61,326 nt of DNA from Psammoneis japonica (taxonomy: Eukaryota), in contig QPGO01000209.1 in NCBI GenBank assembly GCA_008632985.1, forward strand, positions 62,001 through 123,326, given 5' to 3'. Every line of letters begins with the position of its first letter. Within the stretch, counting starts at the first letter, position 1. The translations under genes and the position numbers were made by a program. Under the pieces are notes generated by a model. That model did not search any database, was not told where the DNA came from, and saw only the letters and a list, made by a program, of their open reading frames with translations. This document shows positions 1 through 57,084 of this stretch, piece after piece.

Positions 1-665
1 CATGGAATTATCTCGGCGACCTTTTCTGGCAGCTTCTCATGACGCTGCGTTCGGCGTTTTGTCTTCTGGCATCGATCGCACTTGACGCACGTAGAATGCA
101 CCGTAGACCTCATGCCAGGCCAGCAGAAGTGCTGGGCAACAGATGTTTCCGTGCGTGTCTCACCTGGGTGACACAGTGTCTCGTGGCACCATTCAGCTAG
201 CGGAACCTGCAATGACTGTGGCACTGCGATTTTGTCCTTATGACAGATTAACTGTCGTGATGACCCTCCCCCACGATGCGCGCGAATGGAGCAGTCGGAC
301 AAGTCCTCAGCTCGTGAGAGCAGGCGCTTGTCCTTTTGTTGTTCTTTTTGAATGCGCTTGAAGCCAACAGGCAGAGATGCGTCGTCTTGCGTGTCCGCGT
401 TAAAAGCTTCATGCAAAGGACGACTCGATGGAGTGTCTTTTGCATCCGGATTGGCCTCGGAAGGCAAGCTGGGTGCCAGCCGAAGGCGACTAAGAGCGTC
501 AGCGACCAGGTTGTGGGTGCCCTCAACATGGCGTAATTCGGGACCGCATTCTTCGCATGTCAACCGCCAGCGCATAACGCGCTCAGTGTTGAATGCTTTG
601 TGCGCAAGATTTTTATGATCAGCATGTACAATCACACGATGACCGAGGAGAGTCGTTCGAAATTC

Positions 666-1061
666 GACGTGTTCCAGCTCTGGGTGGGACCTCGCACTGC
701 TGAACTGTGACACAATTGTTTTTTGTCATCCGTCGTATGTTTCGCACGCACATTTCTACGTGTTCTGTTATAAAAAATTGTTCCACACTGCCTGTTTTGC
801 GAAGCCAAAGGCTTTCTGTTGTCTGCACTTGTGTCAACAAAAATGCGCTGGGTGTGTTCTTTAATGTCTAAAGAGCACACCCGGGCACACTGCAAAGAAT
901 GTACTTCAAGTGTGGAGGAGGAGACACGTTCGCAAAATTGCCTCTTTTTCTGTTGGCGATCATTCACATGTCCATTGCTTGGTGATTTTACTGTGGAGCT
1001 CGCACGCAGAATTCTGCGGGCCCAATGTCACAAAAAGTCCCACCTGGGACTGGAACCCGTC
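666..1061. mobile_element. 396-bp MITE, GAC...GTC termini, 4-bp TSD ATTC, TpA-mutated copy
   Basis: Imperfect ~25-bp TIRs gacgtgttccagctctgggtgggac / gtcccacctgggactggaacccgtc; attc at 662-665 and 1062-1065; removing it restores the RNase H frame KE-FRT. Confidence 0.92.
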
Positions 1062-1102
1062 ATTCTTTCAATGTCTCCACAATGGCGAGCAATTCTCTCT
1101 CC

Positions 1103-1498
1103 GACGTGTTCCAGCTCTGGGTGGGACCTCGCACTGCTGAACTGTGACACAATTGTTTTTTTTCATCCGTCGCATGTTTTGCGCGCACATTTCTGACTGT
1201 TCCATCATGAAAAATTGTTCCACACTGCCTGTTTTGCGAAGCCAAAGGCTTTCTGTCATCTGCACTTGTGTCAACAAAAATGCGCTGGGCATGTTCTTTA
1301 ATGTCTGAAGAATGTGCCCGGGCACACTGCAAAGAATGTGCTTCAAGTGTGGAGGAGGAGATGCGTTCGCAAAATTGCCTCTTTTTCTGTTGGCGATCAT
1401 TCACACATCCATTGCTTGACAATTTTACTGCGGAGCTCGCACGCAGAAATCTGCGGGCCTGATGTCACAAAAAGTCCCACCCAGGACTGGAACCCGTC
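1103..1498. mobile_element. Second 396-bp MITE of the same family, 4-bp TSD CTCC
   Basis: Same TIRs; ctcc at 1099-1102 and 1499-1502; removing it restores TTE-RELLAIV. Confidence 0.92.
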
Positions 1499-1688
1499 CT
1501 CCGTTGTTGCACAATTTAATTGCGCACTGTTGAGCTTTCTGCCACAAAAGGCGACAGGTTTGTTGTCTTGGGATGTGACTGCTCCCAATTGACATTTAGA
1601 GGCATCGGTGTGCACCTCAAAGGATTCATTAAAATCAGGATGTGATGATAAAACATCATCTGACATTGCCCGTTTAACGGTTTTGAAT

Positions 1689-1792
1689 GCCTCGTCTTCA
1701 ACGGACGTCCACTCCCACTTGACAGTCTCGCTTGCGAGTCGCCTCGTCTTCAACGGACGTCCACTCCCACTTGACAGTCTCGCTTGCGAGTC
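1689..1792. repeat. Perfect 52-bp tandem duplication in Gypsy pol
   Basis: gcctcgtcttcaacggacgtccactcccacttgacagtctcgcttgcgagtc occurs at 1689-1740 and 1741-1792, shifting the frame. Confidence 0.95.
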
Positions 1793-2974
1793 GTGTCAGC
1801 GGAGCCAAGACTTCAGAACGTCCAATCCACGGGTCACGGCAGCAGTTGACCATGCCAACAAATGACCGCAGGTCGCGTTCATTGGTTGGGGTCGCGATTT
1901 GCTTAATGGCGTCAACTTTATCAGGCATTGGTCGTGTTCCGTCTCTGTTGACCAGGCAACCCAAGCACTCCAATTGGGTTTGACAGAAGTGAGATTTGGC
2001 TGTGTTAACTTTTAGTCCTGCTTTCTGGACCCTCAACAAAACTTCTTCAAGTTTGTTGAGATGATCTTCATGGGTGCCTTTCGTCAAGACGAGAAGGTCA
2101 TCTAAGTGCGTTCAAACAAACGACAGATCTTCAAACAAGCCTGACATGCGTTCTTGGAAAATGTCTGGCGAATTGCATGACCCCATGGGCAATGCCTGCA
2201 TCTCACACTTGCCCCACGGGAAGATGAGCATGCAGAGCTTCTTGCTGTCAGCATCCAATCGGATGTGACAACAGCCCGTGTTTAAATCCAGCGATGCAGC
2301 CCACACAAAGCCTTTGAGCTTGAGCAGCACATCTTGGACATGAGGAATCGGATGAGGCAATCGCTTGATCCATTTGTTCAGCTCTCTGAAATCATTGACA
2401 AAGCGCACCATTGAGTCTTTCTTTGGCACGACAAATGATGGAGCTGCCCATTGGGATCGGCCAACGCATTTGAGAACACCGATGCGCGCCAGGCATTCTA
2501 CTTCTTTACGCAGCGCAGCTTCGCACACACGAGGTGCTTTACACGGACGAGCGTGGTGTGGTTCTGCACCCTCCTTGAGTTGGACATGGCAGGGTTCTCC
2601 CTTCCATTCTCCCAATGTCCCATCAAATGAGGACTCATGGCGTTTCAACAGTGCCAAAAGGTCGTTTTGTTGAACTGCAGAAAGTCCCATTGCTCCTCGC
2701 ATCATGTCTTCGAGGCAGGCCGGCGCGTGCTTGGCGTCTGAAATGCGTGAAATCCAGTTGGTTTCCGAAGACAAGGCTTCTGGATCTTGAAGATAGAAGG
2801 GGGTTTCTGCCGCAGCATCTGGGTGCCTCATTGGCGCTTCTCCATTGACCAATGGCCACTCTGTCATCTGTTTGGAGAAGACAATGTCAATGCCTTGTGT
2901 CTCCAGAATGTCACGTCCAACAATCATGTCGCACTTGCCCAACTTTCCGTTGTGTGCGTGGACGGCATGTTTAA

Positions 2975-3508
2975 GGTAATCGCAGAACGAAGGGGCAAAG
3001 GCACGACAATTTGATTTTTCAGGATTTTCTGCTGCACGAGAAACGCGCAGCGCGCTGCGCGCCTCGTCGCCAACAATCGGCGACGTGACGGTGGTGCGTT
3101 GTCGCAACGACAGAGATGACAGCGACGTGTCCCAGCGTCTTTTGTCGTTGTGGACATTTAGTTTGTCATGTTTAAGAATGCATTCAGTCATGAAAGTCCC
3201 CGCGAGCAACCTCCATTAGAGCGCAAAACGTCATGCCAATGAGGAGCTCTGTTTTTCGACCGTCGTTTTATGCATTCGATTGTCAAACGATTGTGAGTTC
3301 GTCCGGGGGACTTTCTTTGCATGCATGTGTTCTGCATGGTGCAATTGATCAATGTGTTAAGTGCCCATCGCAAATTGTCCTCCATCAGCATCTGAAAATT
3401 GTCATCGTCATCGTCGGTGTCGACGACAATTTGTCGCGCAAATCGCAAAAAATGCACGGCAGTCGTCTGTCTGACATTGCGCTGCTGTGCGCTCGTTGTG
3501 CGCATGCC
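2975..3508. mobile_element. 534-bp non-autonomous TIR element, GG...CC termini, TTAA target (Kolobok-like)
   Basis: Flanks ttaa (2971-2974) and tcaa (3509-3512); removing it restores the protease-region frame ELSKTAEL-KHAVH; inverted homologue at 30884-31417. Confidence 0.85.
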
Positions 3509-3870
3509 TCAAGTTCTGCAGTTTTGGACAATTCTGGCAACCGAATTTTAATGGCACAGTCGTTGGACGTGCTGAACGAGCCTGCCACCGCAGTCCAGTT
3601 TGTCTCAGCCGTTGAACGGCTTTGCAGATGCTTGCAGTGTCAACTGTCGAGCAGAGTGCTGCTGGCGCCACCATCTGGTGGTGCCTCAATGGTTTGAGTC
3701 TTGCCCTTGCCATGTTTGGTGTTCACAGCCACAAACAAGATTGGAGCAAGATGAGTCTTTTTAACTTGTTTGCGGGATTGGCCTGCAACACGTGTACGAT
3801 GGTAATTCAGTTGTTCATTCACACATTCATCTGGTGCATTAAAACTGCCTGCATTGTGTCGGACCCCTTC

Positions 3871-5016
3871 TCAGGTGTCCGAATCTTTGGAATCACTCAA
3901 GTTGAGGTCGCGGAAGTGATTGAGCTCCTCCTTGCGTGCCTTGCGCTTTTTCTGAGCGTTGGCAAAGAACTCCTTGACCTTCGATCCGATGAGAGCATCA
4001 ATGTCTTCCTCATTCCAAGGTTTTGCATCAGGCTTGCTGCCTCCGTCATTGGAATGTCCAGTCTTGACACATTTCACGTGGTGCTTGAGCTGACAGCAAT
4101 CCTCCGCATGATGTCCACAGTCAGTCCCGTGTGGCATGCACGACTTCTGGGTGTTCCGTTGGGTCGTGATCAACGACTCAGGATTGTCCGTTCTACGTCC
4201 CCGCTTGCGTGGAACCTGAGCATGTTGGTCCAGGTTACCTTTGGCAAGCTCGACCTGCTCGATGCGCTCGCAGAACTGTACAAATTCGGCGATGGCATGC
4301 GCCAACAGGTCAAAATTCTGTAACGTCATGAACTTCTGCCATGCGTTTGGCACACCGCACTCGAACATGTCGCACAGTTCGTCATTGGGTGATGGTGCCA
4401 GTGCTTCTCCATCCTCCGTCACGGGTGGAAACTGAGAGACATGGCCGTTAATTTCAACAGCCCTCGCGACGCAGTCACGAGTGGAAACCTCTGCGGGCTT
4501 GCGCATGAAGCACCTCAGATGACGCTTCTGCAACAGCACCGCCCCATGTGGGAAGATGCTTTCCTTTAGCTTCGCGACGCACACTGCGTGCGTGGCATTG
4601 GTTTCAGATGCCTGCATGTCAGCGGCATTGTTGAATGACGTCAGAGCATCGCCCTGCAGCAGGTCACGCACAAGGGCAAATTTCGCTGGCCCGGTCGTCA
4701 TGTTTTGTCCTTCGTGCACGCGATCCACGTTGCGCAGAAAGATCAGGAGTGTCTCGCATGTAGCCGCAGAAAGGTGCGGGATGCCCATCTCATGCGTTGG
4801 ACCATCCGGATCAGTGGGGTTGTTGTGCAGTTTGAACGTCTGGTGCTCGCCCTGCTGTGGCTCTTTCTTCTCCGGCCGTGCGAATGGAATCGGTGGCTTA
4901 ATCCGCTTCTTCATGGTCGTTTTGAGATTTGTCGGTCCTGCCAACATTTCGTAGTTTCGTTTCTGCAGATTTCGTTGCCTCGCACAATGTGCGGGAGTGA
5001 CATTGCTGTGCCCCAT
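3871..5016 (-). pseudogene. Gypsy gag, open but Tyr-depleted
   Basis: 381-aa ORF with PIPF..TFKL..NP, LL.GDAL..F, QKR.LR.FMRKP and a CCHC-like remnant (CMPHG..CGHHAEDC); lies directly upstream of the protease. Confidence 0.85.
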
Positions 5017-5910
5017 GTGTGCACCAGGCGCTGAAAAAGAAGATGTGTTGCGACTTTGTCGTTGTGAAAATTGCGAGCTAGTTTAGAGTAGAGAAAGTGG
5101 GATCATGCGAATGGGGAATCTTGCCAAATCCCCATTCGTTCGCATTTGGATCGCATCAAATCGATCGTGCGTTCGCATTGTGGATCGTGTGAATCAAGCC
5201 ATCACGCACCATGCACGAGTGATGTCATCGTGTGGAATCACGCTGCCATCGTGGGCCAGACGACGGGCCAGTGTGCTTCACACGGATGCTCTCTTGGCAT
5301 CCTTCTGGAATTGCCCAAGACCTAGAGCCACGCCCTCCTGTGGTTGTGCTTCCCAGGTGCGCGTTAACAATGCTGCTTTGCCGCGTACAAGAGGCTCATG
5401 CATGGTCTCGCCGTGTTGTCCAGCAGCAAGGCATGCTGCAATCTCATCCCTTTCATTGAAGACAAACACTTGACCATCATTTTTTGTTTCAAAAACGTGG
5501 CTTCTGGTGTGTGTGACATTCATGGAGCTTTCCTGGGCTCTTCCAAATGACAGCAGTTCTTTGCTGTCTCCAGTGGCGGCAACGGCACAGCTGGAGTGCC
5601 TGGAACTTGAGAGTTGTTTGGAAGATGCTCTCCAGTCTTCAAATCATGCTCTGCATCAGCATGGCATCCTGGAGATTTGAGGAACTCTTGTTTGTTGTTG
5701 CCATGTTGGACATTTTTCTCCAAGGGATGATGGCGAATTGTTGCATGACTGAAAAGAGTGGAGGGACAGACAGACCAACTGATTTTTTGCCGACAACAAG
5801 GAAAATGCATCATGACCGAAACAAGGCACTTTGGCACCATCTACAATGAAATGAACTCCAAAAATGCAGTGTGATTGACACAAAAGAATGAAACAAAAAC
5901 ATGTTTCTAA

Positions 5911-19346: not shown

Positions 19347-20059
19347 TGCCGGTACGTAATGCGACTTTATCGGTTTCGGGGGGGCAACAACCGTTTCCTC
19401 CCTAACATATTTTTCGGATCCAATGAAAATATAAATCTAAAATCGCTCAAGAACATTATGTTTTTATGTGCGCAACAAGTCTCCTATTAGTCCGTCTCTT
19501 CAATAACTGTGTCTATGAGCTGTCATGTGCATTGTTGTTGTCTCTTGCCACTCTAGCTAGAGAGCAGCTCCTTATGGAGTCGAACAGATGTTGTTTCTTC
19601 TCTTGAGGATGGATCATCGGGATGAGGACGGACAGTTGCGGACCCACACTTCCACCCCGCGTGAAAGATCTGCGTGAAAGTTGCGCCATCGTTTGGTCTT
19701 GGTGCCATCACAAATGAATGCTGCTGCTGTGACAGCTGAGAATTGGACAACAGACAAACAAAGTGTTGAACAGCATCAACAGGCTATGGAATTGTGTGTC
19801 AGGCATGCTGCTGGGGCCACTGTGTCAGCAACAGTGGACCAATTGCTGACAGCAGACAATTGCTCACCTTTGTGACAGTGTGTCAGCATTCACTCAGTCC
19901 CTTCCAACTGACACCAGCTCTGCTCGGGTCACCAGATCAACAGACAAATGCAACCTGATGCCACCCTGTTCAAGAACAATTTCTAATTTGGGGATGGAAA
20001 AAGCCACATCCAGGCAGCAAACCCATTTGGTGTGTCCCCCATTGGGGCTCTCCATGAGA

Positions 20060-22800: not shown

Positions 22801-23399
22801 CTTCAGCATGTCACTGATCTCCATCAGTGGGGCTGTTCCAGGTCATCCATGGCAGCAAAACCTTGACAAGTGATGTGCTGCCTCATCTGGTTGTTGCATC
22901 CACAGCACGTTAGAGTGGCTGCAAAGGCTGCAGCAGTGGCCATGGTGGTGCATCAAAATGAAGTTTTTGCATTTTGACACATGAGTTTCCACTTGTGCAA
23001 GTGGGAAATTGTGAGGTGTGCAGCTTGCTTCAGCAAACACCACTGGCCAACTGGCAAGCATGCCAGGTCACCATTTGGTGTGATTGTTTGCACACCAATT
23101 GATGCAAAGCTGATGATCAAGTGTCCAGACATGCATCTCTGTGTGATGTGATCATGAATTGATGGCGTTTGTCACTGTGCTGTTCCACAAATGTTCACAT
23201 GCATTGGCTGACACATTCCATTCATGTGATCAAACACTTTGCACTCCAAAGACACATCTGTCTTGTTGGAAGGGGAGCATTCATGACACAAAGAGACCCA
23301 CTTGGTCATGTCTTCTGCTGCTTTCCCATGAGGTTTGGAATGGTTGCACTTGCAGGTGGTGACACAGTGGCCTTTTGTGTGGCATTTGCCAAACAGTTG

Positions 23400-29825: not shown

Positions 29826-30016
29826 TATTTTTGAAATCGGCAGTTGCTCTTCTTGTTGTCAATGTTTTTTGTGGCTCTATCGTCAAGCAGCAATGTTTTG
29901 TTTCCTCTTGCGTTTTCCCGACATACTTATGCTTTGTTTTCTGTTGCGGCGCCGCGTGAAATTCCTCCTATCGTGTCACAATCACGCCCAACAGAATTGC
30001 GAACTCCAATGATTTA

Positions 30017-33477: not shown

Positions 33478-33660
33478 AAAAGCGAATAAACACTGATGCA
33501 GCCGCATGGGGTGATGACAGTGCCTTGAGCCTAAGAGCAGCAGTGACAAACCAAAGAGAATCCTGCTCCGATTGGATCGTGTGAGATTGTGGGAAAGAAC
33601 AAACCACCAGATCGTGTGCGTCAGCCCCGGACCAGGGACTGACCACTCCACCCAGATTCA
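33478..33660 (-). repeat. Copia 3' LTR
   Basis: Ungapped match to 39924-40106; starts TGAATCTGGG on the minus strand. Confidence 0.9.
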
Positions 33661-36600
33661 CTCGGTCCCCGCGAAACGGCAGTGACAACGCCGATTCGTC
33701 TAAACCCAGAACATCCTCTCATAGAGAGGCAAACACAAAACCCAAATTCAGACCACCAGCAATGCTGGCTTGGGAGGCCGAAACACGTGGGCGCGAGCCG
33801 CAGGTGTCTGGCCTTGGTGTCAGGACGCTGCCAAAAGACACAAGAGCAAAGTTTCCAACGCCGCTCTCCCGTCGTCACCTTCGTAAAAAAATCCGCCAAA
33901 TTCGTGTCCGTGTCCTCCTTCCCGACGCGAATGATGCCAGCCGCAACCGCTTCACGAACCACATGACAGTTGATGGCATTGTGCTTCTTGTGCAACACAG
34001 ATTCCAGAACACTGACATTCTTCACCACGCCGCGGTTGTCGCAAAACACATTGGCAGGGCCTTCAATCGGTGCTCCAAACATGCGAAGCTTGTAACGCAA
34101 AGCAACAATCAACTCCTTGCAAATGCGCATCGCAACCAATTCGCTGCCAAACGTCGCCGACTCCACTGTGTTCTGCCGCTTGCTAGACCAAGTGATCGGA
34201 GCATTGTTCACGAATGTCAAAATCCCGCCATGCGATCTGCGAGCAACAACGTTTCCCGCATGGTTAGCGTCAACAAATGCAGACACATTTACCGGGTTGC
34301 CACGGGGCTTGGGCATCCGTGGCGGCAACTCCTCCTCAACGTCCCCGTAAAACTCCGTCCAGTCCGCAGTGGAATTGAAAACAGATTCGTCAATCACAGG
34401 CATCTTCGGGTCAAAACCAATGCGACCGACATTCAAATGCTTCTTCACACACGCGAACACATGGTGCAATGCTTCGAGGTGCCCTTTCCTTGGGTTGGCT
34501 TGATGCTGAGAGAGAATGGAAACTTCATGCAAGACATCAACATGGCCCAACTCGATCGCCCAACGACAAATGCCAATCAACTGCAAATGCCTGTCTGCCA
34601 AATCAGGTCCCAACTCGTCCGTTACGTCTAATTCCGGCTTGCACTTGGAAGGCAGTGGGTCCCTCACATTGTTCTTCAAGACTGCTCCGTCACCGTCCTC
34701 TTCCAATGGCCCTTCCACCGTCTTGATCGCCGACTTGATGTGCGACTTCGGTGAGCTTGCCCAAATGGTGCGCCCATCCTCGGTCTGAACCTTCTCAACG
34801 TCGGCTCCAAGGCATGACGATGGCTCTCCTTCACTCCCAGGTTTGACAGTGGATGATTCACCCATGCTCTCGACAACAGATTTTCCTTGATGAGAAATGA
34901 TTAGAATGTCGTCAACATAAACCAAAAGCATTTCACAATGCTCATGCCCATCGTCGCGAGTCGCCGCACGAACACAAACGTCGGGATCCGCCTTTGTTGA
35001 TTCAAAACCCATGTTCCGTAAAACCGATGCCAATGCGGACCTCCAAGAGCATCCAGAGCTCTTCAAACCGTGCAGCGCTCGAGCCACAATTAGAACCTTG
35101 CCTTGGTGCTCTCCACATTCCCTGCCACCTTTGAACCAGATCTTCTCTGCACACGGGGCATTCAAATGCGCGTTCTCCAGGTCGACAGCCGTGATGTCCA
35201 CTCCATTCAATGCTGCCAGCAGGAATCCTAACCGCACGCTGTCCCTCGAAACAACACTTGAGCATGTGATCGATGACGGTGTTTCCGCAGCATGACCTCC
35301 TGCAACAAATCTGGCCTTCCCAGTGAAATCCATCTTGACGTCGAACACCAAATGACACCTGATCTCCTGACAACCACGCAAAGTTGCACTCTTGCCTTCC
35401 CGGACGACTTGAGGGGTTTCAGCTTCATGTTCGCGCCACGCTGCCTTGACCTTGTTCATCTCCTTGTCAATTGCGCGAGCCCAATGGTCCGTCCCCGTTT
35501 CCTGGTCAATCTTCAAAGCATCTTCTGTAGACTTGGGCAAACGCGTGCCGAACTTGTGGGCAGTGCGCCAATGTTTCTTCTTAACCTTTGAGATGATGCG
35601 ATTCCGCTCACGTAAAACATGCGTGACCCACCAAGCAAACACCGGTTCTTCAGCCAACCTGTTCGCAACAGCATGCTCAGCAACTTCAATTGGGTTAGAC
35701 TCCTTCAGATCCTTGAGTTTCACCCACGACGAGCTGCCGTCCTTCCATGCGACCAACAGGTTCCATCCTTTCGCAGTTGTCTTCTTATGTTCCTTCCCGT
35801 CAGCTGTCTGAACTGTTCCTTCCTGGATCGGCACAGCTTCGCCGGTCTTTTCGTGATCCTGCATCTCCTGCAAAATAGAACACTGGTTGCCTTTGCTGTC
35901 AACTTGAGCAAACATGTTCTCCGCGATCACATTGGCAGCATGCTTGTCTCTGGTGCCGTCTGTGTGTTCAATCTCGTGTTCGCGGGTGTCAAACAATGGA
36001 CTCTGATGCCGGGTTCCAATCGGTCGCCCATCCTGACCTCGTGCCCGCTTGACTGCGACTCCTCGCCGTTCAGCGTTAGTCCCAACATCAAACATAAGTT
36101 CCATTCCAAGACATTGATCAATTGCCTGTTCGTTGTCGTCCTCGGGTCGTTTTCCTGGCAATGACATGTCCCCGCATTCCTCATCGGTTGGTGTCACACC
36201 GCCTTCACATTCCACACTGGGGTTGCCGTCGATCGCCAAATCATCCAGTGCAAATGCTGGCACCGCTTCGTCGCCTTGTAAAACGAAATTGGTGTCATCT
36301 AACCGTGCCTCCAGTTGTTCGTTAAACTTGTCGACTTTCACACGAATGTCCGGCTGCACCATGTCGGCCTGCGTTACATGCTCGACCGAAGTCTTCGAAA
36401 CTGTCTTCCCGGATTCCGTGATGATCCAATGACACATGTCCGATCCGACCTTGTGAGATGTGCCAAGCCATCGTCCAAGCCTCCTCGGGTCATCTGTTGC
36501 ATTCGGCTTGTCGTGTCTGTCCCACCACCAGACCAGATCACAGAAACCGAAGTCCAAACATTCGCCCATTTCGGGTGTCTGACCAGTTACCTCTTCACAC

Positions 36601-38150
36601 CCAGTCCGTTTGTCACGGCCTCTTGCCATGCGAGATGCAAGTTCCGATTCACAAACTAGACCAAAATCCCACAATCGTTTCGGCACCTTCTTCCTCGTCA
36701 TCCGCAGGCGCCAACGCTTGGCCAAGAACCCGATCTCTCTTTCTGCTGCGTGATTCTGATTCTTGCAACCTTGTTCCATTGTCCTGAGTTGGATCCTCAT
36801 TCGACGTGCGTGTTTCACAAACTCGGCACTTCGTCCTGTGAACTCTCCAGCACCATCCGATGTGAGACATTCCGGCACTCCCACATCGTCTGTAAAGTCA
36901 ATGAGAGACAAACCTGCCTCCGACCTTGCGGTCATTGGCACAACCTTTACGAACTTGCCCTGAGCACAAACATTGGCACAAGTGTTGCCGAGCAAAGATT
37001 TCACCTTGGATGTTAATGTGTCCACAAACCATGTCCCTTTTAATCTTTTTCGATGCAGGTCCAAGTGATCCACCCTAACTCTCCTTGACATTGGTTGGGC
37101 CGCCGTCCGCACACCGCATTGTGCAGTTACATTGAGAGTGTCCTTAGCCGTTTCCAAGCCGACGTTCCACTTTCGTGCTAGCTCTTCAGCGTCGATCTTG
37201 GAGTGACGGTCCTCACTGCGCAACTCCTCAACAGATCTTGCTCTTTCGTCTGTGTCTGACCCACACGCGCAAGCTGCGTTGACCAAACTGATGAGCCTGT
37301 CACAAAAGGATTTAAGATGATAGACTGGAGACAATCGAGTGAGTTCAGCTTCAACCTCGCCCCATTGGACTGCTTGAGACTTGGCCCTGTCGCTCTTCAT
37401 TTCTGAAATCTGTTCCTGTCTCATGCCAGATGTCATCAAACGGATGGCACGGATCTCAGATTGCTCCCTTGTGCGCTGTGGTAAACCCATGTCGACTTCT
37501 GTTGGATTCCACACGTCTCCTTTCAGCAGCATCACTGGCAAGTTCTTCTCCTCCCAATCCGTCGGAACACGAGACTTGAAAGATGCAATTGTCCCCGTGG
37601 AATTGAAAGGTATGAAAGCTTCATCAGCTTCGATCCCAAACCCATTTCGAGTGTCGCAAGGGTTGTCGTGTACGGGCACATCACACGCTTGCAACTGATT
37701 GGGGTTCAACAATGAATGCTGCATGTCAGTTCCAAACCACAACATTTGGTCTCCAACCAGTGAGCACTCACGAGTCGTTTCCGGATCCGTCCATGCTGTG
37801 CAACAACGCGCCACAGGAATCTGTTTAACCGGCTCATGCGAATCTAGAAACGGGTGCACTTCACAGACTTCGTTCGTCAATTCCATGAGTTTCCAGTTGG
37901 CGCCAGCACAACAAGTGTCCGCATGAGTGTCACATTCGTTCCTCGCCATGAAGCCGGGTGTCGTTAAGTTCGTCATCGCGGTGGCAGTCGTTGACCTTGT
38001 CACACATTTCGAAGTCACAGCAACGCGCCTTTTTGTTACCTTCTCTTGCAAATGAAACATTGGGTGGGGTTTGGTTAACAACATGATGAGCAACATGAAT
38101 GCAAATGACATGTGCACCAAGTGTGCCAACGCTCCCGTAGTTGAAACCAC
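33621..38150 (-). pseudogene. Copia pol, uninterrupted 1509-aa ORF with pervasive missense change; ancestral stop probably at 33828-33830
   Basis: PR DTHADTCCAG; IN WFVDTL..SDGAGEF..NHAAEREI; RT KARFVAGG, DLENAHL, ALHGLKSSG, YVDD; RH FVDANHAG, ESATFGSE, CDN, NLADFFTK; only 4 Tyr. Confidence 0.92.
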
Positions 38151-38159
38151 CCCGATCAG

Positions 38160-39480
38160 TCAAGCATGACCTTGGTGGGCTCCTCGACCGAAAGCACGCC
38201 CATTTCTGCCACCACGATCACGGTCAGCTCCGCGACCGCAGCCACCGCCTTCACCTTGCGCTTGACCTTGCTGCTCTTGACCTTGACGGTCTTGAACCTG
38301 AGCTTTGGCTACTTGCCCATTGCCTCCGGCGCGTCCGCCTCTTCCTGCAGGGTTTCCTTGGCCACCGCGTCCGCGCATCCTTTCACGAGCCTGAAAAACA
38401 TAATTGAGACCTCCGTTAAAGCGCAACCTGTCCCATTCCTGGTCGGCAAATGTCCTCGCAGGATCCGATGCGTCGACTCCGTCAATCACAGTTGTGCGAT
38501 CACCGCCCCTTCCTTGATGTCCTCCGCATCCTCCACCGCAGCCAAATCCACCACCACGCCCACGACCGCCGTGATGGAAACCTCGGCCACCGCCGCCACC
38601 TCGGCTGACCTGAGAAATCTTGCGCTTCGCACAATGCCGGGCTTCCAACTGAGCACCTGCATGCAAACAAGAGACTTCGGATGAGAAACAAGCACACGCC
38701 CCCGCGAAGTCACGAGGGCACTGGTTGCCAATGACGGCCGCAGCCGCCACAAGACGGGCATCCTCCGATTTGATGCCCTTCTGCAACATTTCAACCTTCT
38801 GCCGAGCAGACATGCTTTCATCTGGAACCTCGTCCAAAGCAGCAAAGGCACTGGTGAGTTTCTCCGTGAATTTCTCAAACGCAAGTGCACCTTCCTTTTT
38901 GTAGAATGACGTTTCGATGTTGGCCTCAGCCAAATGAACTCGCTTGCTCAATTCGCCTTCGCCGTTGCAATGGTTGACCCAGGCCCAGAATGCTTCGCGT
39001 CCATTCTCTGTTGCGTCACATGAAACAAGTTCAAGAAATCGTCTTCACACACGTCAAAATCTTCCGCTTTGAATTTGGTGAGGCTGTCAACCATCGCAGT
39101 GGATTCCGTAAACTCCTTTTCAACACGCCTGCCGTCCCCAGCCGCCGCCATAGCTGCAATGTCAAAATTCGCCATGACCAGTGGCTGGTTCCGTTTCGTT
39201 AAATCTCTCAACCACCAAACCAACGCCTGCAAGTTCTTAATCTGCATCGTCCCCAGCGTCACGCGTCCATTGGCTGCTGTACGACGAGCCGCCCTTTGGG
39301 CTAGATCCTCAACATCGTGGTCTGTTTCCACAACAGCAACATTCTCAAGAGCAGCAAACCCTTCACAGAAAACAAGCCTCGCCCCAGCGTTCTGGTCAAC
39401 AACACCACAAACCTGCAATGCCGCGTCTGCATCAGCCACCGCGGCCAAAGCCGCAAGTGCCGCTGCTGGTGCCGCTGCCA
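38160..39480 (-). pseudogene. Copia gag, frameshifted or internally deleted near 38950-39020
   Basis: RTAANGRVTLG..IKNLQALVWW; FYKKEGALAFEKF; Gly/Arg-rich tail and NGVD-like DGVDASDP.RTF..EW. Confidence 0.85.
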
Positions 39481-39923
39481 TCCTGTGACAAGAGAAATGG
39501 AGGCAACAACCCATGCAATGGGTCGCAATTTGGTGTGAGTGCGCATGGCACAGGAGGCTTCACCGACCGGTGCTGTGACGACGGGTTCACGCAGCCAACC
39601 GACTTCGGGGTGATCAATTCCGTGTCGTTTCCATTGTGAGCACACGCTCGGGCATGCTGCCCAATGCCGCAGTCGCTCCACACCCGTTAACAACATGGAG
39701 ATGGTGACCATTTTGCGAGTGTTTTCCGTTGCAAGCTGTTTCCTTTGGTCGTCATACGCGACACAGAACACACGCTGCACGCGACAACCCCCTTTCGACG
39801 CTGCACGTACAAATCAGTACATTTTCTACAGCTGCTCGTTCCATGCACACAATCACAACAATCAACCGTTTACAACGAGTTGTTTCCTTGTCCGTTTCGT
39901 TCAGCTTTTCATCAATGGCTCTG

Positions 39924-40106
39924 AAAAGCGAACAAATGCCGATGCAGCCGCGTGGGGCAATGACAGCACCTTGAGCCTGAGAGCAGCAGTGATGGGCCAA
40001 AGAGAATCCCATTCCAATTAGATCGTGTGAGATTGTGGGAAAGAACAAACCACCAGATCGTGTGCGTCAGCCCTGGACCAGGGACTGACCGCTCCACCCA
40101 GATTCA
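39924..40106 (-). repeat. Copia 5' LTR
   Basis: Ungapped match to 33478-33660. Confidence 0.9.
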
Positions 40107-40399
40107 CTTGAAAGTTCTGCATTTTAATCCTCATGATGGATGTCAATCATTCCGCCAACTTTCACCTTTTTCTGCTTCCCCTCCAAAGCCCCTCCTTGCC
40201 AGAAAATCACAATGTTTCATTTGCACCATTCACCTGAGCAATCGTGTGTGGGGCATTTGTCCCTTCCACTTGTGATCTTTGGACCCAATCCCCATGTTTT
40301 TGGTGGGTCAGTGCAGAGCTGCAAAAGTGGTGTGACCAGCAGCCGCAGGATTCTGCGTCTGCTGTTCACACTGTGATTGCCCATGGTGGTTTGCCTCTC

Positions 40400-43300
40400 C
40401 CACCATTGCAACAATGCCCCGGCTCAAAGTCATGCCCAAGCAAAAGCAGTGTCTCTCTTCTTGCTCTGATGATTTGTTTGAGGATGACACCATGAAGTGC
40501 CGTGCACACCAAGAACCAGAATGGTTGCTGGAGCTGGCCCAGCTCTGACACTGAGTGGAGTCATCTCTATGATGCACACCCACATCGACCATGTTGACAA
40601 CATCCGAAACATCAGGAACAAGCTCAAATGTTCGTTCATCACACCAGAGACCTTTGCAGAGTGTCAGGCAGCCCTTCGTGCAGCTCAGTCTGAATGCAAG
40701 AGAATTGCGGTGGCAAGCATTGTGCATCAAGAGAACAAGACAGCAGAGAAGATTGCCGCGTTAGTGTTGGAAGGCACCAAGGCTTCCAAGCAGAAAGCTG
40801 CCATCTTACGAAATGTTTGGAAAGCCAAGGAGACCCAGAAGTTGTTTCAGAAGATCCAGTTTTGATCGTGACACAGGTGTCAACAGTGCACAAGTGCCCC
40901 GCAACCCTGAGGTGCATCCCAAAGAGTGTGAAGACTGGACTGTGATCAATGCCCCAGAAGATGTTGCTGCAGTGCTTTGACTTTGCAGTCAAAAACACTT
41001 TGGACAGGCTCACGGTGCTCCTCCTGCCCCCCCCCCCCCCTGTTGGTGGATCTTGGTTACATCGGCAACACAGTTTTTGCTGATCTTGTTCTCAATGGCG
41101 AGCATGACACTTCTCAACTAAATGAGGCAATGTCTTGATTTGTCCAACACCTTTGCCGCCGGTCTCCTGTCTCAGCATCCTCATTCCTTGCAGCGGATGA
41201 CTTAGAAGGCAAGATGAAATCTTGGACCAAGTCTGCATCCACTTCCATCAAGTCAGGACTTCATTTGGGCCGCTGGAAAGCCACGCATGCCACCCACTCT
41301 CAGTCCAACGCAACCACCCCAGAAGGTGATCCTACGGAAGACCGCAAGCCTCTCAATGCCACTCAAAGCACTCTCATTCAAATGAGATTGAACCTCTTGA
41401 ATTGTGCTCTCCATTGGGGGTGCTCTCATGACAGATGGAAAGATGTTGTTGATGTCATGATCTTCAAGGAGGCCAGGAACAACAAGATCCACCACTTGCA
41501 AGTCATTCACATCTACGAGGCAGACTTTCAATTAATCTCAAGTGTGATGTGGCGGTCCCTTGCTCACAATGTGGAACAACATAAACTCTACAATCCTGGG
41601 ACATGCGGAACTTGCTCCTTCCTGAATGCCAATGCCCCTGTGCACCTCAAGGAACTTGTGCTTGAAACAAGTCAAGTCTCCCAAAAAACTGCCATTCACA
41701 GCAATGACGACTGCACCTCCTGCTGTGGTTGCAACATTCTGGTGCCAGCAGCTCTGGAGAGTTGCAGCAACAGCATGCCAAAAGAAGTTGTTCAGACCGC
41801 AAATTGCACTCTTCAACAGGCACGCTGCTGGCTAAAAACTGCCATTGGTCTGTCCCAAGCGTCTCCCTCACATTCCTCTGACTCTCCCATTTACAGCACT
41901 GGTCAGGGCAGTGGCAATTCTCCTTTCCATTGGAACCAAATGTGCAACAGCCTTTTTGAGATTTTGACCAACACGCTCATGGAGCTCATTTTGAATCCCC
42001 AAATCATTTTGGTTTCCAGTGAGACATTTGACCGCGGACATGTCAATGACACCTTGAAGCAAGTTGGCATTTTCACTGCCTCCCCTCAACCCTCTGTGTG
42101 CTGGTCTTGGCTTTCAAAATGCAGGAGGACAGCCAGCTGTGGTGTGATCTTCTTCATGGTGCTGGCCACAAATTGGAACCACCCAAATGTTCACACCATG
42201 TCATCAAATGGCACTTCACTGAGGATGGTGAGCCGCACCTTGCTGCTTACAATGACAATGTCATCATTGATGTTTCCTCTGCCAATCAGTCACACTTGAG
42301 GTCCAGCATTCAGCTGTCTGCCTGCACGTCACACAAGACCCTTGGACACTTCAAGCCTCCAGCTGGAACACAGAAAACCCACTGCAAGGTTCTCAAGAAA
42401 CAGAGCAATGGCATTGCTCTCTTCCTTTGATCCTGCCCCCCTGGACAGAAAGGAAGCTTGGACGCACTGCTTGGCTTGCTGCTCAGTGTGCTTGACGTGC
42501 ACCCTCCTGAATTCCCATTTTGCTCTGAATGAACTTCTTGAGATCCAACAAAAAGCCATGCACACAACATTTGCCAAATGTGGATGCAATCAAAATGCCA
42601 AACAAGATGTCCTTTTTGGTCCTTGTGCACGGCGTTGGCCAAGCAGTGCAGTTCTTGTCTCATTGGTGTGGTGTCCACCAGCCAGCAACGTCATCTCACA
42701 TTGCAGTTTCATGGATGCAATTCCATCTTGGCACAGGCGTCAGCTTCCTGAAAGATGTTCATTCGAAGTTGCTTCACTCTGAGTCCAAATGGTTCATGTC
42801 ACTCCACTCGTTTTTTGTCCAGAGTGGATGCTCATTTTGATTTGGAAGACACATGCATGCTTCCTCTCCAGAGGGACAACAAGCAATGTGTCATGGATGT
42901 GGTTCTCAAATCAGGGACATTTTCTGACCAACAAATGCGCTGGGTGAATTGTTGTTGTCTGTACCTCAACGTCCTCACAATTTCCAATGTTGCCTTGCCA
43001 GATGGCTGGTTCTTGGATTGCCAAATGTCCCCAGCTGCACCCTCTGTTTTAGGCAGCTCATCCACGTTGAACCTGGTGGAACAAGCTCTCCCATCCTCAC
43101 GTGCCTGGAAACAGTGGCAGTGGTTTTGCAGCTTTGCAAGCAGAGGAAAAGACCTCAAGTCATGTGACCCATTGGGCTCCTGGGTTGTCCTGGCTGCTGA
43201 GATGCGGATGACATTCCCAGTGTGTTATGAACCTGATGAAGGCCACTCATGTGTGAGATCTCTGGATGGGTTTCAAGTGTTTCCCGTGATGCGTGGTGTC

Positions 43301-44950
43301 ACTCCTCACATTGATCCCCTCAAGACCATTCCTGCCTTTTCTCCCCTGGCATCACCTGTCATGGTCAACACCATTGAAGATGGTCGATGGTGAATCCAAA
43401 GCACCGGTGCCATGTTTGATCTTTCTCCCCCAACTCCAGTTCCTTCAGACTTTCTTGCATGGCTGCAGCCATTTTTGAACTGGCCGAGACTCTTCAGTTT
43501 CATTGTGCAACAGCAGCAAGCAATGGGTCAGTTGTTGGTTCCAATGCCACCTTTGGATGGACGCTTGCAATTGACGGAAATGTTCTCATTGATTGTGCAG
43601 GTCCAGTTTTTGGCTTTTGCCTGTCATCCCACCAAGCAGAGGCATGTGGGCCACTCTCCATCCTTCGATTCATTCTCAGGGCAATGGAATTCTGTCAAAC
43701 TCTCTTTCCGGGCTTGGACACACATCACAATGACTCTGCTGTTGTCTGCAACATGAGCAATCTCCTTCCTGTCCCCACATCTGCTGAAGACAATTCCACT
43801 GCGCAACATGACTGCTGCCGTTGATTTCACATGGCTGACACCATGTCAACTGATTGGGACGTGGTGAACAAAATTTTTCATTCAGTCCATTCTCTCCTGT
43901 CCAAGCCGTCATGCACCCAGGTCACATTTCATTGGATCAAGGGGCATCAAGATGACGCAGCTCCCTGTGAAACCCTGTCCCTTCTGGCACAGCTGAACAT
44001 TTGAGCGGATTTCATCGCAGGTCAACATCAAGGAAAACATCCTTGGTCTACATTGATTGCTCCCAGGGTGCCACACTGCCCCACCAACCTCATTGTTCAT
44101 GATGCCTTGGTGCACTCCAAGTGCAAACCAGTGCTCTGATGCAAAGCCTCAAGCCCAGCTGTTGTTGCACACATGAAAGAGAAGCATGCTTGGACAGACA
44201 AGGTCTTCCAGCTCATTGATTGGCAGGCACACTCCAAACTCATGTTGCCGAACATTGCCAGGAAAGTGAGCACAGTCAAACTGGTGCAAGATTTGTTGCC
44301 AACTGACAAGATTGTCCACCGTTGCAATCCTGTTTGACCTGATTGTTGCATCCATTGCCAACATCTGATGGAGGACAGAGATCACATTCTACATTGCCCC
44401 CACAATGAAGCATGGCACCACCCTTTCTTCAAGGATTGCAGAAGAAATGTGATGACATGCACACTTCCCCTCCCATGCAAGATGTTCTGATCATTGTGGT
44501 TGAAGCTTGGTTCTGTGAAGACATTGTCTGTGCCAACAAGCTCCACCACAGCATTTTGGAGATGTTCCATGCACAGAAACAAATTGGCTGGCAGCACATT
44601 TTCAATGGGCAATTCTCCACTTGTTGGAACAGAGCACACCTCATGCATTTACAAACAATCAAAAACTTAGACTGCAATGCCTCCAGAGTTGACTGGGCAG
44701 CTGCCATCTGCAGTTTCACATGGTCTCAATGGCAGGCATTGTGGGATCAACACAATGAAGCTGTTCATGGACAAGACGCAGAAACCAGTGAGTTGGCACA
44801 ACAGCATGATGCGGAGGCAGAAGTCAAGGCTGCACACTCCCATTCCAATGACTGCCTGGCCAAAGATTGAGCAACTGTGTGTGACTCTGTCAACAAACAT
44901 CTCACCCATTTGACTCATCACATTTAGATTTGGTTGGCAATTGTCCAACC
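40400..44950 (+). mobile_element. Degenerate non-LTR retrotransposon (RT plus RNase H plus C-terminal CCHC)
   Basis: SGLHLGRWKA, RWKDVVDVMIFKE..KIHHLQVIHIYEAD, GQGSGNSP, KLEPPKC, KTLGH; RNase H ASNGSV..FGW..SSHQAEACG, WIKGHQDD; terminal EDRDHILHC; many stops; ends approximate. Confidence 0.85.
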
Positions 44951-47900
44951 CATGTTTAAATCAGGCATTTGCAAGGCAAAACAACTGGCCTTGCACGGCA
45001 CTTGCACTGTTGCCAATCTTGGCTGATCGCTGTGTGCCCCTGCTGCACTCAAGTGCACTGGGGGTGTGGGCTGGCTTGTTTGCCAGAGTTGCAGGGTGGA
45101 AGTGCAGGAGCATCTTAAAAACAGATGTTTGTTTTTGTTTTTCTTTGAGGATGACACCAAATGTGAAACTGGCGCCATGATCTGCTTTGTCATGTCTCCT
45201 GACCACAATGGTTTGTTGCTTGATGTTTTGTCTCCCTCCAATGTGGCGGCAAGCCCCTCTGCTGACGTCAATCTTAGCTCTGATGACAACTCCGATGGCA
45301 ACAACTTGACCAGCCAAGGCAATTCTCATGCCAGGGCACCGTCTGCATCTGGAGACCTTGACGGCCATGCCAGTGATCTTTCTTTTCCCAATGAAGACAA
45401 CATGGACAACAATTTTTTAGACAGAAGCAATGGCTCTGTGCTGGACAACAAAGCTGAAGTGCACACCAACGGTGTTGGCAGTGCCTGCACAACCAAGGCT
45501 CAATTAAAAAAATCATTGAGATGCAGCGCCGCTGTCAGCACTTTCTTGAGACTTCTGAATGGACTCCCTCCCCTGACCTCATTGCTCTGCCCTTTGTTTG
45601 TTGCAACCACCAGAATCAAGCCTCCCGTTTCTTCATGGAAGTGTTGATGGTCAATGACACAGTTGCTCATTCTCTTGGCTGTGAAGATGGCTTTCATCAT
45701 GCAAAAGTTGTGGCTGGTTGTGTTTCCACCGCAAAGATGGGAGGTGTGTTCTGGAGCACCGCAAGCTGGCTGAAAGCTTTTCCAATCTTTCCCAATTCGG
45801 CAAAAATCTCCATGCAATCATTGACAATTTATGCAAGATGACAGTGCACGATTGACTTGGCAACATCCCTTGCTTCCTGCGGATCACCAGCTTCCATTCC
45901 AAGTTTAATTTTTTTGCGCAATGCCTGAGCATTGCGGCTGCCACAACGGACTGTTGCTTTCCACCTCACATTGACAAAGAGTGCGGCAATTTTTGACACT
46001 GGTCCACCATTGTTTTTTCTGGCTGCAAAAAAGAGAAAACAGTTTGTGCTGTCTTGCAATGATGTTTTGACCCTGATGAACACAGATGAGAAGGTGAAGG
46101 ATGGGAAGGTTGCCAAGACAATCCCAACCAAACATCTGGAATGTGTCAAGGCTTGCATTGACACTTGTGCCTTGGCAAAAGACAAGGCACAAAAACACCA
46201 AGAGTTGGTTGAACGTGAGCTCCACTCCACCTTCAAGCATTCCTGCAAGGACACAAACCATTTCAAGTTGCACAACCTGGCAATTGTGCAATCACGTGTC
46301 TGCAATCTCATGCATCCATGCCTTTCCCCGTGAAGCCAAGGCAAAGTTTGTCTCTTCCACCCAGAGGACAAAGAAAAGGAAGGAGTCCTCCACTGTGTTG
46401 GCTGGTTCTCTGGCACCTCCGCCCACTTCATTTGCCAAAGACATCAACCAGAATCCTGTTGCTCAGCCAACTGGCACCATGGCCGATGCCCCACCTGCCG
46501 CCAAATGCTCCATCAGTGCGCTTGCCTCCCAGTTGCAACCTTTGGCTGATGACATGGTTGAGTTGTTGTTGGATGGAGAGTCGTCATTGGCAGGTGAATT
46601 GTTGAACAATGAAGACCCCATTCAGAATGTCCCCAACACCTGTGTGGATGGTCCATCCACAGCAGTTGCTTCTGCTGCAGCATCAATCACATCAATGAGA
46701 TCCACAACCTCCTTGTCAATTGATGATTGGTTCCCCTGTGGTCATTGTTGCAGCTTTGCATCACCCGCTGATTCCTCAAGATGTGCTCCTTGCATTTGTG
46801 TTTTTTTATGATCTGGACAACGATGACAAGCACAATGAGGCTGTGGACCTGCAGCTGCCAACAACAGCTTTCAGCTCCATCTTGAAGTTTCCTTCTCTGT
46901 CTTGGTCAGTCCAAAGTGTGAGACTTGCGTGACATTCTCTGCACCACCAGCTTCCCAGGAATGCAGGTGATTGTCAAACATTGCTGCAAACACACCCCAT
47001 GGATTGCTGCCAAAGTCAACACCATCAAAGGCGTTTCACAGTGGATGCATTGTGCAAAGATGGGCAAGAAGGGCTGTTGCAAGCTTTTTTTGTCTCTCAA
47101 GACAATCATCCAGTGGACTGCCTGTGCTGACTGCAGCTGCGGAGACAGTGCATCCAAGTGCCAGCTTGTCAAGAGATGGGGCACAATCTCCACATTGGCT
47201 GGCAAGCAGGAAAGGCCCAGTTCATTGGTTGGACAGTTGGTGTTTGCAACATTGTTGGCAGAACACATGCAAAAACGGTGGACCCAACAGGGGTCACCCC
47301 CATTGTTTGCTTTCTGTCTGCAGACAAAGTCTTGTGACTTCCGGTCCCCAAATGTGGGCCCTCATGCAAGGAGGACGCGCATCTGCCGGCAAACACCACC
47401 AAGGCTTGCCATCATGTGGGGGGGTCTGCCTGCAAGGCCTTGAGATCTTCCAACAGAAAAGACAACATGTCATGGTGCGCCTGTGTGTTTGAGGGAGAAG
47501 ACTCCCCCCCGAATGGCCCTCGCTCACATTGTCATTCTCATCCAATGTGCCACTTGCACCCCCCTTGTCCAGGCTGAGGATGAACCCAAGGTGACGCCAA
47601 GCACAATCATGCTCCCGCACATGCCACTTGGCTTGAAGAATGCAAAACAACCAGGGCTTGAGAGGACCCCTTTGACAGGCATCAGCACCTGTCTGATCAG
47701 CGCACAAGCCAACAGGCAAGAGCAAGTCTTTCTCACAGTGAAAGTCCTCAGGGAGGTCATTGCATGTGTCAGAGCACCATTTGTTGGACATGATCTTGCC
47801 AAAATCATGGTCATCAACAGGAACAAACTTGTGGAAACGTGCATGGATGGACTGGCTGCTGTTGAGATTGTGCTCGTTGTCAAACATCGAGTGGGCAAGC

Positions 47901-48178
47901 AAATTTCTCAACATGTCCCGCATGTGGAAGCAAGTGACTTCCCGTCTGCCAATGATGCAAGTGTTGGGCTGGGGCAGGAAAACCTTCTTTCTGAGTTTTT
48001 TTGCCAACAAGTCTCAGCCAAGACACTGGGAACAATCAAACTTCCGCTTCTTGTGGGGTCATCACAAAAGGGAGAGCAGCTGCCTGAAAAATTGACGAGT
48101 GGCACCGGAATTGTCACACAGCGTGATCAGCTCCAGCAAAGCTTCCTCCTTGAGTGAAAAGGTTGGCAAATCATGTGC

Positions 48179-48567
48179 GACGCGTTCCAGGTCTAGGTGG
48201 GACCTCGCACTGCTGAACTGTGACATCGACAGTTTTTTGAATCTCGTCGTATGTCGCGCACGTAGAATTCTACGTGATTTTTTGACATTTTGTGTCATTT
48301 TACGGTACACTTATTGAGCGATCCGTCCAAAAACTTTTGACATTTTTTGTTACAGCGCGATTCTATAATGTCTTAAAAATCGCGTAGGGCAGGTGCATTT
48401 GCAAAAACGTCGAGTGGTAAGAGGCATAATTGTACCACAAACTTGGCCGTTTATTTGATGTTGAAGATAAATGTGTCCATTAATTAAATTCTCGTACTAC
48501 GGAGCTCGCACGTAGAATTCTACGGGCCAAATGTCACACGGAGTCCCACCTAGGGCTGGAACGCGTC
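48179..48567. mobile_element. 389-bp MITE, GACGCG...CGCGTC termini, 4-bp TSD GTGC, unmutated
   Basis: gtgc at 48175-48178 and 48568-48571; termini homologous to the 666 and 1103 copies; 18-bp palindrome cacgtagaattctacgtg at 48259-48276. Confidence 0.95.
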
Positions 48568-48904: not shown

Positions 48905-49294
48905 GACGCGTTCCAGCCCTAGGTGGGACTCCGTGTGACATTGGGCCCGTAGAATTCTACGTGCGAGCTCCGTAGTACGAGAATTTAATTAATGGATATA
49001 TTTATCTTCAACATCAAATAAACGGCCAAGTTTGTGGTACAATTATGCCTCTTACCACTCGACGTTATTGCAAATGCGCCTGCCCTACGCGATTCTTAAG
49101 ACATTATAGAATCGCGCTGTAACAAAAAATGTCAAAAGTTGTTAGACGGATCGCTCAATAAGTGTACCGTAAAATGACACAAAATATCGAAAAAATCACG
49201 TAGAAATCTACGTGCGCGACATACGACGTGATTCAAAAAACTATCGATGTCACAGTTCAGCAGCACGAGGTCCCACCTAGACCTGGAACGCGTC
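48905..49294. mobile_element. 390-bp MITE, inverted near-copy of 48179-48567, 4-bp TSD TGTT, unmutated
   Basis: tgtt at 48901-48904 and 49295-49298. Confidence 0.95.
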
Positions 49295-56223: not shown

Positions 56224-56299
56224 ATTCACGTGGATCCTGCGTGTTGTCACAAATCTGCAAATCAACAACTGGCCATGGCAGTGAAAGACTTCACCCCAT

Positions 56300-57050: not shown

Positions 57051-57084
57051 CGGATGCACCAACACACCGGCAAGTGTGTGTTGC

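Follow-up and report, generated by a model that had tools for sequence, protein, structure and literature searches.

Four MITE copies and their surroundings

We have studied four miniature inverted-repeat transposable elements (MITEs) in a stretch of 61,326 nucleotides from contig QPGO01000209.1 of Psammoneis japonica (positions 62,001 to 123,326; hereafter the window, with coordinates counted from its first letter), together with the loss of TA dinucleotide steps (TpA) that marks two of these copies and much of the DNA of the window. The original prediction for this locus, which had compared the copies A1 and A2 with the copies B1 and B2, took TA for the ancestral state and TG or CA for the derived one, and every sequence string that it quoted was found at its position. 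The four copies with their target duplications, and the retrotransposon that hosts A1 and A2, are listed below; step frequencies are given throughout as the ratio of observed to expected counts (obs/exp).

666..1061, plus strand: MITE copy A1, 396 bp, with 8 TA and 17 CG steps and a TpA obs/exp of 0.30
662-665 and 1062-1065: target duplication ATTC of A1, 4 bp
1103..1498, plus strand: MITE copy A2, 396 bp, with 2 TA and 17 CG steps and a TpA obs/exp of 0.08
1099-1102 and 1499-1502: target duplication CTCC of A2, 4 bp
48179..48567, plus strand: MITE copy B1, 389 bp, target duplication GTGC, with 24 TA and 28 CG steps
48905..49294, minus strand (inverted): MITE copy B2, 390 bp, target duplication TGTT, with 30 TA and 30 CG steps
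3..5082, minus strand: decayed Ty3/gypsy-type retrotransposon with RVT_1, RNase H and integrase zinc-binding domains, host of A1 and A2

Each copy starts with GACG(C/T)GTTCCAG..CT(A/G)GGTGGGAC and ends with the inverted counterpart, and the two 25-nt ends of a copy mismatch at two positions in B1 and B2, at three in A2 and at five in A1. This terminal inverted repeat (TIR) pattern has eight matches in the window against 0.12 expected, a number of at least eight being reached in 0 of 100 shuffles, and no MITE copy or fragment beyond the four was found in the window. With TIRs and a 4-bp target duplication of its own in 4 of 4 copies, the set is one family of non-autonomous TIR DNA transposons, as the original prediction had held. 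It had likewise described the two pairs as subfamilies rather than exact copies, and indeed A and B are alike only over about 97 bp of the left end and about 73 bp of the right end, at roughly 85% identity, the remainder being very different.

A1 and A2 lie 41 bp apart within the RNase H-integrase part of the gypsy element, and Tandem Repeats Finder reports them as a repeat with a 437-bp period. As each has its own target duplication, and as their removal in silico, together with one duplication each, fuses gypsy open reading frames (ORFs) of 241 and 132 aa into a single one of 331 aa, they represent two precise, separate insertions and not a tandem duplication. In the gypsy pol region beside A2, at 1689-1793, 52 bp are duplicated in tandem without a mismatch (2.0 copies, 100% match). 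B1 and B2 are about 96% identical and inverted with respect to each other, with a spacer of 337 bp that contains a single TA; a C-rich and CT-rich tract of low complexity at 48720-48760 is also part of this spacer.

For comparison with public data, four public runs of one sample, which may be the window's own, were used, and contigs that another assembler had made from them were aligned to 46500-48700. The summed word depth of B-type sequence in the public run is 9e4-3.5e5 (a sum of depths, not a copy number), compared with 26-30 for single-copy contigs, and going by this summed depth the B subfamily comprises a very large number of near-identical copies. Parts of B-type MITEs were also assembled in three tiny runs of that sample. 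Scans of metagenome and viral contigs with the exact pattern of the conserved MITE end gave no match, and the only match of a looser TIR pattern was rejected as a chance match, in a GC-rich, bacterial-looking coding stretch without a MITE.

Direction of change within the MITEs

Where the ends of A and B can be aligned, a TA step of B is faced in A by TG in 16 cases, CA in 12, TA in eight and TT in two (38 B-by-A pair counts, from two B and two A copies). The TA steps of A, for their part, face TA in B in 8 of 8 cases, so that 28 pair counts for TA in B against TG or CA in A stand opposite none for the reverse. The right TIR, gtcccaccTAgggctgg at 48543, reads gtcccaccTGggactgg at 1037 and gtcccaccCAggactgg at 1474, giving a site with TA in B, TG in A1 and CA in A2, while the left TIR is tcTAggtgggac at 48192 and tcTGggtgggac at both 679 and 1116. 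Two further differences between the A copies are polarised by the B outgroup: CGTATG, with TA in A1 and both B copies and CA in A2, and CTACGTG, with TA again in A1 and both B copies and a changed step in A2. As evidenced by these three sites and by the lost tyrosine codons of two retrotransposons (see below), TA is the ancestral state and TG and CA are derived from it. The original prediction had named, as the finding that would speak against it, a consensus carrying CG or TG/CA at these sites; with 41 of 446 variants listed, no such consensus was seen, and TA is present in 4 of 4 B TIRs. The end of another copy, from a public run, also has CTAGG.

The subterminal motif cacgTAgaattcTAcggg of B1 corresponds to cacgCAgaattcTGcggg in A1, and here the earlier claim that the change breaks a palindrome was mistaken. 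cgCAgaattcTGcg remains a perfect palindrome: in A1, CGCAGAATTCTGCG equals its reverse complement, the left TA having become CA and the right one TG, and the palindrome of A2 is disrupted only by a central T>A transversion. Note that the intact palindrome of A1 is uninformative with respect to selection, as its chance is one half when each TA goes to either CA or TG.

Of the 396 positions, 35 differ between A1 and A2, and 31 of the 35 differences are transitions. Ten sites oppose TG in one copy to CA in the other, for which permutation yields a mean of 0.44 and a maximum of 6 in 20000 trials, and a further six have TA in A1 and TG or CA in A2, with no instance of the reverse. Fifteen CpG steps are intact in both copies, and CG in one copy faces TG/CA in the other at only three sites; at this low level of CpG loss, decay of CpG would give 0.07 discordant TG/CA sites where ten are seen. 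These ten sites imply that the ancestral step that was lost almost everywhere in both A copies was TA. If concordant double hits were as frequent as discordant ones, the common ancestor of the A copies had about 28 TA steps, similar to the B copies with 24 and 30. The conversion of TA is then estimated at about 70% in A1 and about 90% in A2, with other substitutions at about 1%, in agreement with the TpA obs/exp of the two copies.

TA loss in retrotransposons and across the window

Two retrotransposons serve as witnesses independent of the MITEs, the gypsy element that hosts A1 and A2 and the following one:

33478..40108, minus strand: copia-type retrotransposon with long terminal repeats (LTRs), LTR parts at 33478-33662 and 39924-40108, open frame at 33621-38159

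The copia element has a TpA obs/exp of 0.16-0.23 with CpG at about 1.0, and its frame of 1512 aa, which is free of frameshifts, contains four tyrosines (0.3%) versus 3.2% in its 60 best homologues, with Cys and His raised. Tyrosine is shared by at least 70% of these homologues at 24 columns, and there the element has His ten times, Cys ten times, Tyr three times and Ser once. For most other conserved residues retention is 81-100%, with lower values (55-77%) for Ile (22/40), Thr (30/40) and Leu (55/71). A change of TAY to CAY is T>C on the sense strand and one of TAY to TGY is A>G; with as many His as Cys, intermingled over the length of the protein, both strands have been struck equally, and no strand-coordinated tracts of His versus Cys are apparent by eye. 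A comparison of the two LTR parts gives 21 differences over 185 positions, without exception transitions and many of them TG versus CA, which suggests that the changes arose after insertion.

In the gypsy element TpA obs/exp is 0.14-0.18, again with CpG at about 1.0. Its reverse transcriptase ORF has retained none of five conserved tyrosines (Cys 3, His 1, Met 1) and all conserved F (6/6), D (6/6) and P (12/12), and the tyrosine content of three gypsy ORFs is 0-0.5%, versus 3-6% in the ordinary genes of the window.

The closest named relatives of the copia element are from diatoms (52-55% identity to Fragilaria crotonensis), and its nearest Atlas clusters are labelled Bacillariophyta. Among 120 homologues from public data only one, from a public metagenome (P0170), has a lowered tyrosine content (1.7% versus a median of 3.5%), with Cys and His raised; the footprint of TA loss is thus not general in the copia family, and this homologue may stem from partial hypermutation in another organism.

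The loss reaches far beyond these elements. For the whole window obs/exp is 0.24 for TpA, 0.58 for CpG, 1.02 for TC and 1.57 for CA/TG, and TpA falls below 0.25 in 43 of 62 bins of 1 kb. It is restricted to repeats: 15 gene-like bins have TpA at 0.46-0.83 and CpG at about 0.7-1.2, 16 bins of recognisable or younger transposons have TpA at 0.09-0.23 and CpG at 0.6-1.08, and 27 old, repeat-derived bins have TpA at 0.00-0.16 and CpG at 0.06-0.6, the remaining four being intermediate. At a resolution of 100 bp the edges are sharp, with the number of TA steps per 100 bp dropping from 4-8 to 0 at 10.2k, 19.6k, 30.9k and 54.1k and rising from 0 to 4 at 7.6k.

The TA steps that survive differ in their context from those of gene-like bins. 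In depleted bins TTAA is enriched 5.9-fold and CTAA/TTAG 2.7-fold, ATAC/GTAT is down to 0.14 and ATAT to 0. A1 and A2 have only two TA steps in common, one within TTAA and one within TTAC, and in the copia frame T precedes 3 of 3 retained tyrosine codons versus 3 of 21 lost ones (hypergeometric 0.01, calculated by hand). The process disfavours TA steps within TTA or TAA, a first indication that its sequence preference extends beyond the TA step.

The block to the left of B1 serves as an example of old repeat-derived DNA, and is listed here with two further features of the window:

40109..48178, no strand assigned: repeat-derived block, TA obs/exp 0.00-0.16, CG 0.13-0.34, no Pfam family, repeated as judged by depth
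7613-10202 (inverted), 26421-29831 and 50141-53806: three copies of a segment of about 3 kb with a HYR-domain ORF, 89-98% identical in well-aligned parts
60573-61325, minus strand: ORF with a 2-oxoglutarate (2OG)-Fe(II) oxygenase domain of the prolyl-hydroxylase type (E 3e-11), running off the end of the window

B1 and B2 form islands of normal TA content inside TA-free DNA, and they must therefore have arrived after the surrounding block had been stripped. In the public reads the depth over the flank of B1 is several to dozens of times that of single-copy DNA, so that this flank is repeated in the genome; at 47363-47364 the window's copy has CA where most of the others have TG (216 of 243 in depth), the same discordant signature as seen between A1 and A2. 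In the HYR-domain segment majority polarisation gave no TA-specific excess, with T>C at 0.112 per TA site versus 0.118 per TG site, and it counts as a negative control and not as evidence on direction. As this triplicated segment has a normal TA content, and as two copies of a MITE family of very high depth have been spared, duplication alone is not the trigger.

Overlapping ORFs of 150-390 aa occur in several frames on both strands at 20000-25000, 40000-48000 and 54000-60000, with no Pfam family. Such ORFs are long in TA-poor blocks because TAA and TAG have vanished there, and gene finders would over-call them. Among 41 ORFs, mostly from TA-poor blocks, the only Pfam family found was that of the 2OG oxygenase at the gene-like right end. 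The nearest Atlas cluster of this ORF is labelled mostly giant viruses and the ORF has no TET/JBP family match; protein searches with it and with an LVIVD-repeat ORF returned only relatives that were distant or carried no name. Searches with Rfam, for tRNAs and for a spliced-leader motif yielded nothing that points to a source lineage, and a dinoflagellate origin, considered at first, was discarded.

A probable TpA-directed process, its alternatives and known systems

We consider it likely that the A copies and their gypsy host were hypermutated from TpA to TpG or CpA at the level of DNA after insertion, that the B copies of the second subfamily are later arrivals, and that the process is aimed at transposon DNA. 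According to this model A1 and A2 would have inserted separately into the gypsy retrotransposon, and host and guests would then have been struck together, by an A:T to G:C transition at TA steps that falls on either strand with equal chance. B1 and B2 would have entered DNA already stripped of TA and would have stayed almost untouched since. The process would act on transposon-derived DNA in sharp-edged domains and spare gene-like sequence, with a slower CpG decay alongside accounting for the additional changes of CG to TG or CA; the way in which it would recognise transposons is inferred. Its chemistry may be that of a TadA/ADAT-like DNA deaminase converting adenine to hypoxanthine, a route proposed for the chlorarachniophyte alga Bigelowiella natans, and a DNA adenine deaminase is our leading guess for the enzyme. 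TadA and ADAT natively deaminate A34 following the invariant U33 in tRNA, and a preference for TpA would come naturally to this enzyme family.

Several observations weigh against this interpretation. Independent and equal hits predict, by hand arithmetic, about 6.7 sites with TA kept in A2 and lost in A1, and none is seen, so that either a site-specific susceptibility or a difference in dose must be assumed; sparing of TTA/TAA would explain why the losses of A2 include all those of A1. No A-type copy was seen outside the window, in reads compared over the B region at 46500-48700 only, and four changes common to A1 and A2 may have been inherited from a source copy that was already mutated. Two sites (48207-48208, and 1023-1024 with its counterpart 1460-1461) do not fit a single hit on TA. 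At CCCAATG/CCTGATG the C of CA is present in A1, in B2 and in 97% of the family depth, with TG in A2, and at CGCACTG/CGTGCTG A1, A2 and B1 have CA and B2 has TG; either these two steps go back to TA with parallel changes to CA, or another process has flipped them. At five of 11 listed variant places inside B1 (41 of 446 variants were listed), TG or CA is the majority state with 55-92% of summed depth, and TA accounts for 8, 14, 37, 43 and 45%; three are private to B1. A majority rule alone would call TA the derived state at these five places, where the family data do not polarise, and they may be the mark of source copies that had already been hit. The original prediction called the B copies pristine, which is right insofar as B1 and B2 are otherwise almost untouched, and too strong for B1, which has TG or CA at these five places where other copies of the family have TA. 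Finally, the public runs carry no platform record, and no gene for a deaminase or a base-modifying enzyme was seen in the window.

Ordinary CpG decay, in which TG and CA would go back to methylated CG and the TA of the B copies would be unrelated or doubly decayed, can itself yield TG-versus-CA pairs, and it has left traces here: CpG obs/exp is 0.06-0.3 in the oldest blocks, and the A copies have 17 CG each versus 28-30 in B, GACGCG of B being GACGTG in A. Nevertheless, the outgroup has TA and not CG at the cited sites, the ten discordant sites far exceed what such decay predicts, and copia and gypsy have lost TpA and tyrosine codons in spite of a CpG near 1.0; as the source of the pattern we regard CpG decay as highly improbable. 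The opposite polarity, in which TA would be derived by a C>T process resembling repeat-induced point mutation (RIP), whose signature is CpA>TpA, would suit a closely spaced, inverted and nearly identical pair such as B1 and B2. The repeats of the window are however depleted of TpA (obs/exp 0.00-0.23) and not enriched, tyrosine codons were lost and not gained, and the pairs of TG in A1 with CA in A2 are unreachable in one step from either state, which leaves this explanation with hardly any credibility. Selection against TA was discarded, as it cannot account for the loss of conserved tyrosines from transposon proteins.

Editing of RNA by an ADAR-like activity (A>I, favouring a 5' U), or editing of retrotransposon intermediates in the course of reverse transcription, would be in keeping with the preference of ADAR for A>G after U (bioRxiv 10.64898/2026.01.13.699255) and with the fact that the coding elements most clearly affected are retrotransposons. 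MITEs with TIRs and target duplications are affected as well, and on the sense strand T>C (Tyr to His, 10) equals A>G (Tyr to Cys, 10), so that we see only a very slim chance for it. A base-calling or assembly artefact, with heavily modified TA and CG bases in silenced repeats misread as TG or CA, would produce strand-random calls and spare unmodified genes, and dinoflagellate transposons do carry 5-hydroxymethyluracil (5hmU), preferentially in TA and TC (PMC11572971). As evidenced by the public data such misreading is unlikely, and we rate it very low overall: two contigs assembled independently from k-mers, with a depth of 26-30, match the almost TA-free region 46889-47787 at 46889-47269 (381 bases) and 47242-47787 (546 bases) with 0 differences, the longest contig of a public run, 315 kb, implies accurate reads, and the long copia frame is uninterrupted.

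A different chemistry, in which the thymine of TpA on transposons is modified to 5hmU or a J-like base that mispairs with G and makes T>C the primary change, seems to us unlikely, though deserving of attention. From the sequence alone, T>C is indistinguishable from A>G on the opposite strand, and on dinoflagellate transposons 5hmU is made by TET/JBP enzymes, with older work placing it in TA and TC steps (PMC11572971). In the window TC steps show no comparable loss (obs/exp 1.02), and its sole 2OG oxygenase is of the prolyl-hydroxylase type. We know of no such enzyme or base in diatom-like algae.

Returning to a process that removes TpA from transposon DNA, we find ourselves evenly divided on a broader proposal, namely that it constitutes a programmed genome defence in a diatom or other ochrophyte, an A:T>G:C mirror image of fungal RIP. 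Such a defence would recognise its targets other than by copy number, act in bounded domains and in episodes, and convert nearly every TA outside TTA/TAA on either strand, such that tyrosine codons, TAA and TAG are gone at a time when decay by CpG methylation has barely begun. The affected MITEs show that the process acts on DNA, and the window offers a second system in which to seek the enzyme and the targeting signal. In genomes of this kind TAA and TAG vanish from repeats, which creates long spurious ORFs in all frames, transposon proteins lose their tyrosines, and the dating of insertions by LTR or copy divergence is badly inflated.

Among known systems, fungal RIP is likewise a transition-only and dinucleotide-specific mutation of mobile or repeated DNA that acts at the DNA level and ruins coding capacity. 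It differs in that RIP raises TpA, which is removed here, and in that the triplicated 3-kb segment with its 89-98% identity and two copies of a MITE family with a summed depth thousands of times that of single-copy DNA were left untouched. With the deamination of 5-methylcytosine the process shares the products TG and CA and the TG-versus-CA pairs between copies, and that decay is itself present in the older blocks; it acts on CG, however, whereas in copia and gypsy CpG is intact and TA is gone. ADAR and APOBEC editing of retroelements also disables mobile elements by clustered, deaminase-driven transitions, and ADAR prefers an A after U, but these enzymes work on RNA or single-stranded cDNA and leave a signature on one strand, while here both strands are equal and DNA transposons are included. 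Dinoflagellate 5hmU resembles the present case in its preference for TA and its location on transposable elements; it is a modification and not a mutation, occurs in a different lineage, and in the accessible text of the report comes without a T>C footprint (PMC11572971).

The closest parallel is found in B. natans, for which a preprint (bioRxiv 10.64898/2026.01.13.699255) describes mutation-accumulation lines in which new mutations arise about 1000 times faster in two integrated viral regions than elsewhere in the genome. In these regions 230 of 231 new mutations were A>G or T>C, all 230 on TpA and only in some of the lines. DDE and reverse-transcriptase domains were over-represented in coding sequences poor in TpA and rich in CpA+TpG, an ADAT2-like DNA adenine deaminase was proposed, not shown, and the Discussion names RIP as a comparison. 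As far as our literature search has reached, this 2026 preprint on integrated viruses is so far the sole precedent for a TpA hypermutation signature. Both cases share the changes TpA>TpG and TpA>CpA on both strands, a confinement to invading DNA, an organisation in domains, a seemingly episodic action, the footprint of low TpA with high CpA+TpG, and the link to DDE and reverse-transcriptase sequences. The rate was measured in B. natans, whereas the process is known here from its footprint alone, and the DNA that is struck consists of LTR retrotransposons, MITEs and repeats that escape classification, in place of giant-virus or virophage insertions. The loss is near saturation here (TpA 0.00-0.2) and extends over 43 of 62 kb bins, compared with 124 clusters in the whole B. 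natans genome (about 85 Mb callable); 32 of the 62 bins pass the 5% tail thresholds of the preprint (TpA at most 0.43, CpA+TpG at least 1.52, with an obs/exp formula that may differ slightly from ours). The window thus appears to hold a second, denser and more extensive case of a process of the B. natans type, apparently in another lineage, and if the same system operates in Rhizaria, to which Bigelowiella belongs, and in stramenopiles, it would represent an old and widespread eukaryotic immunity by DNA editing.

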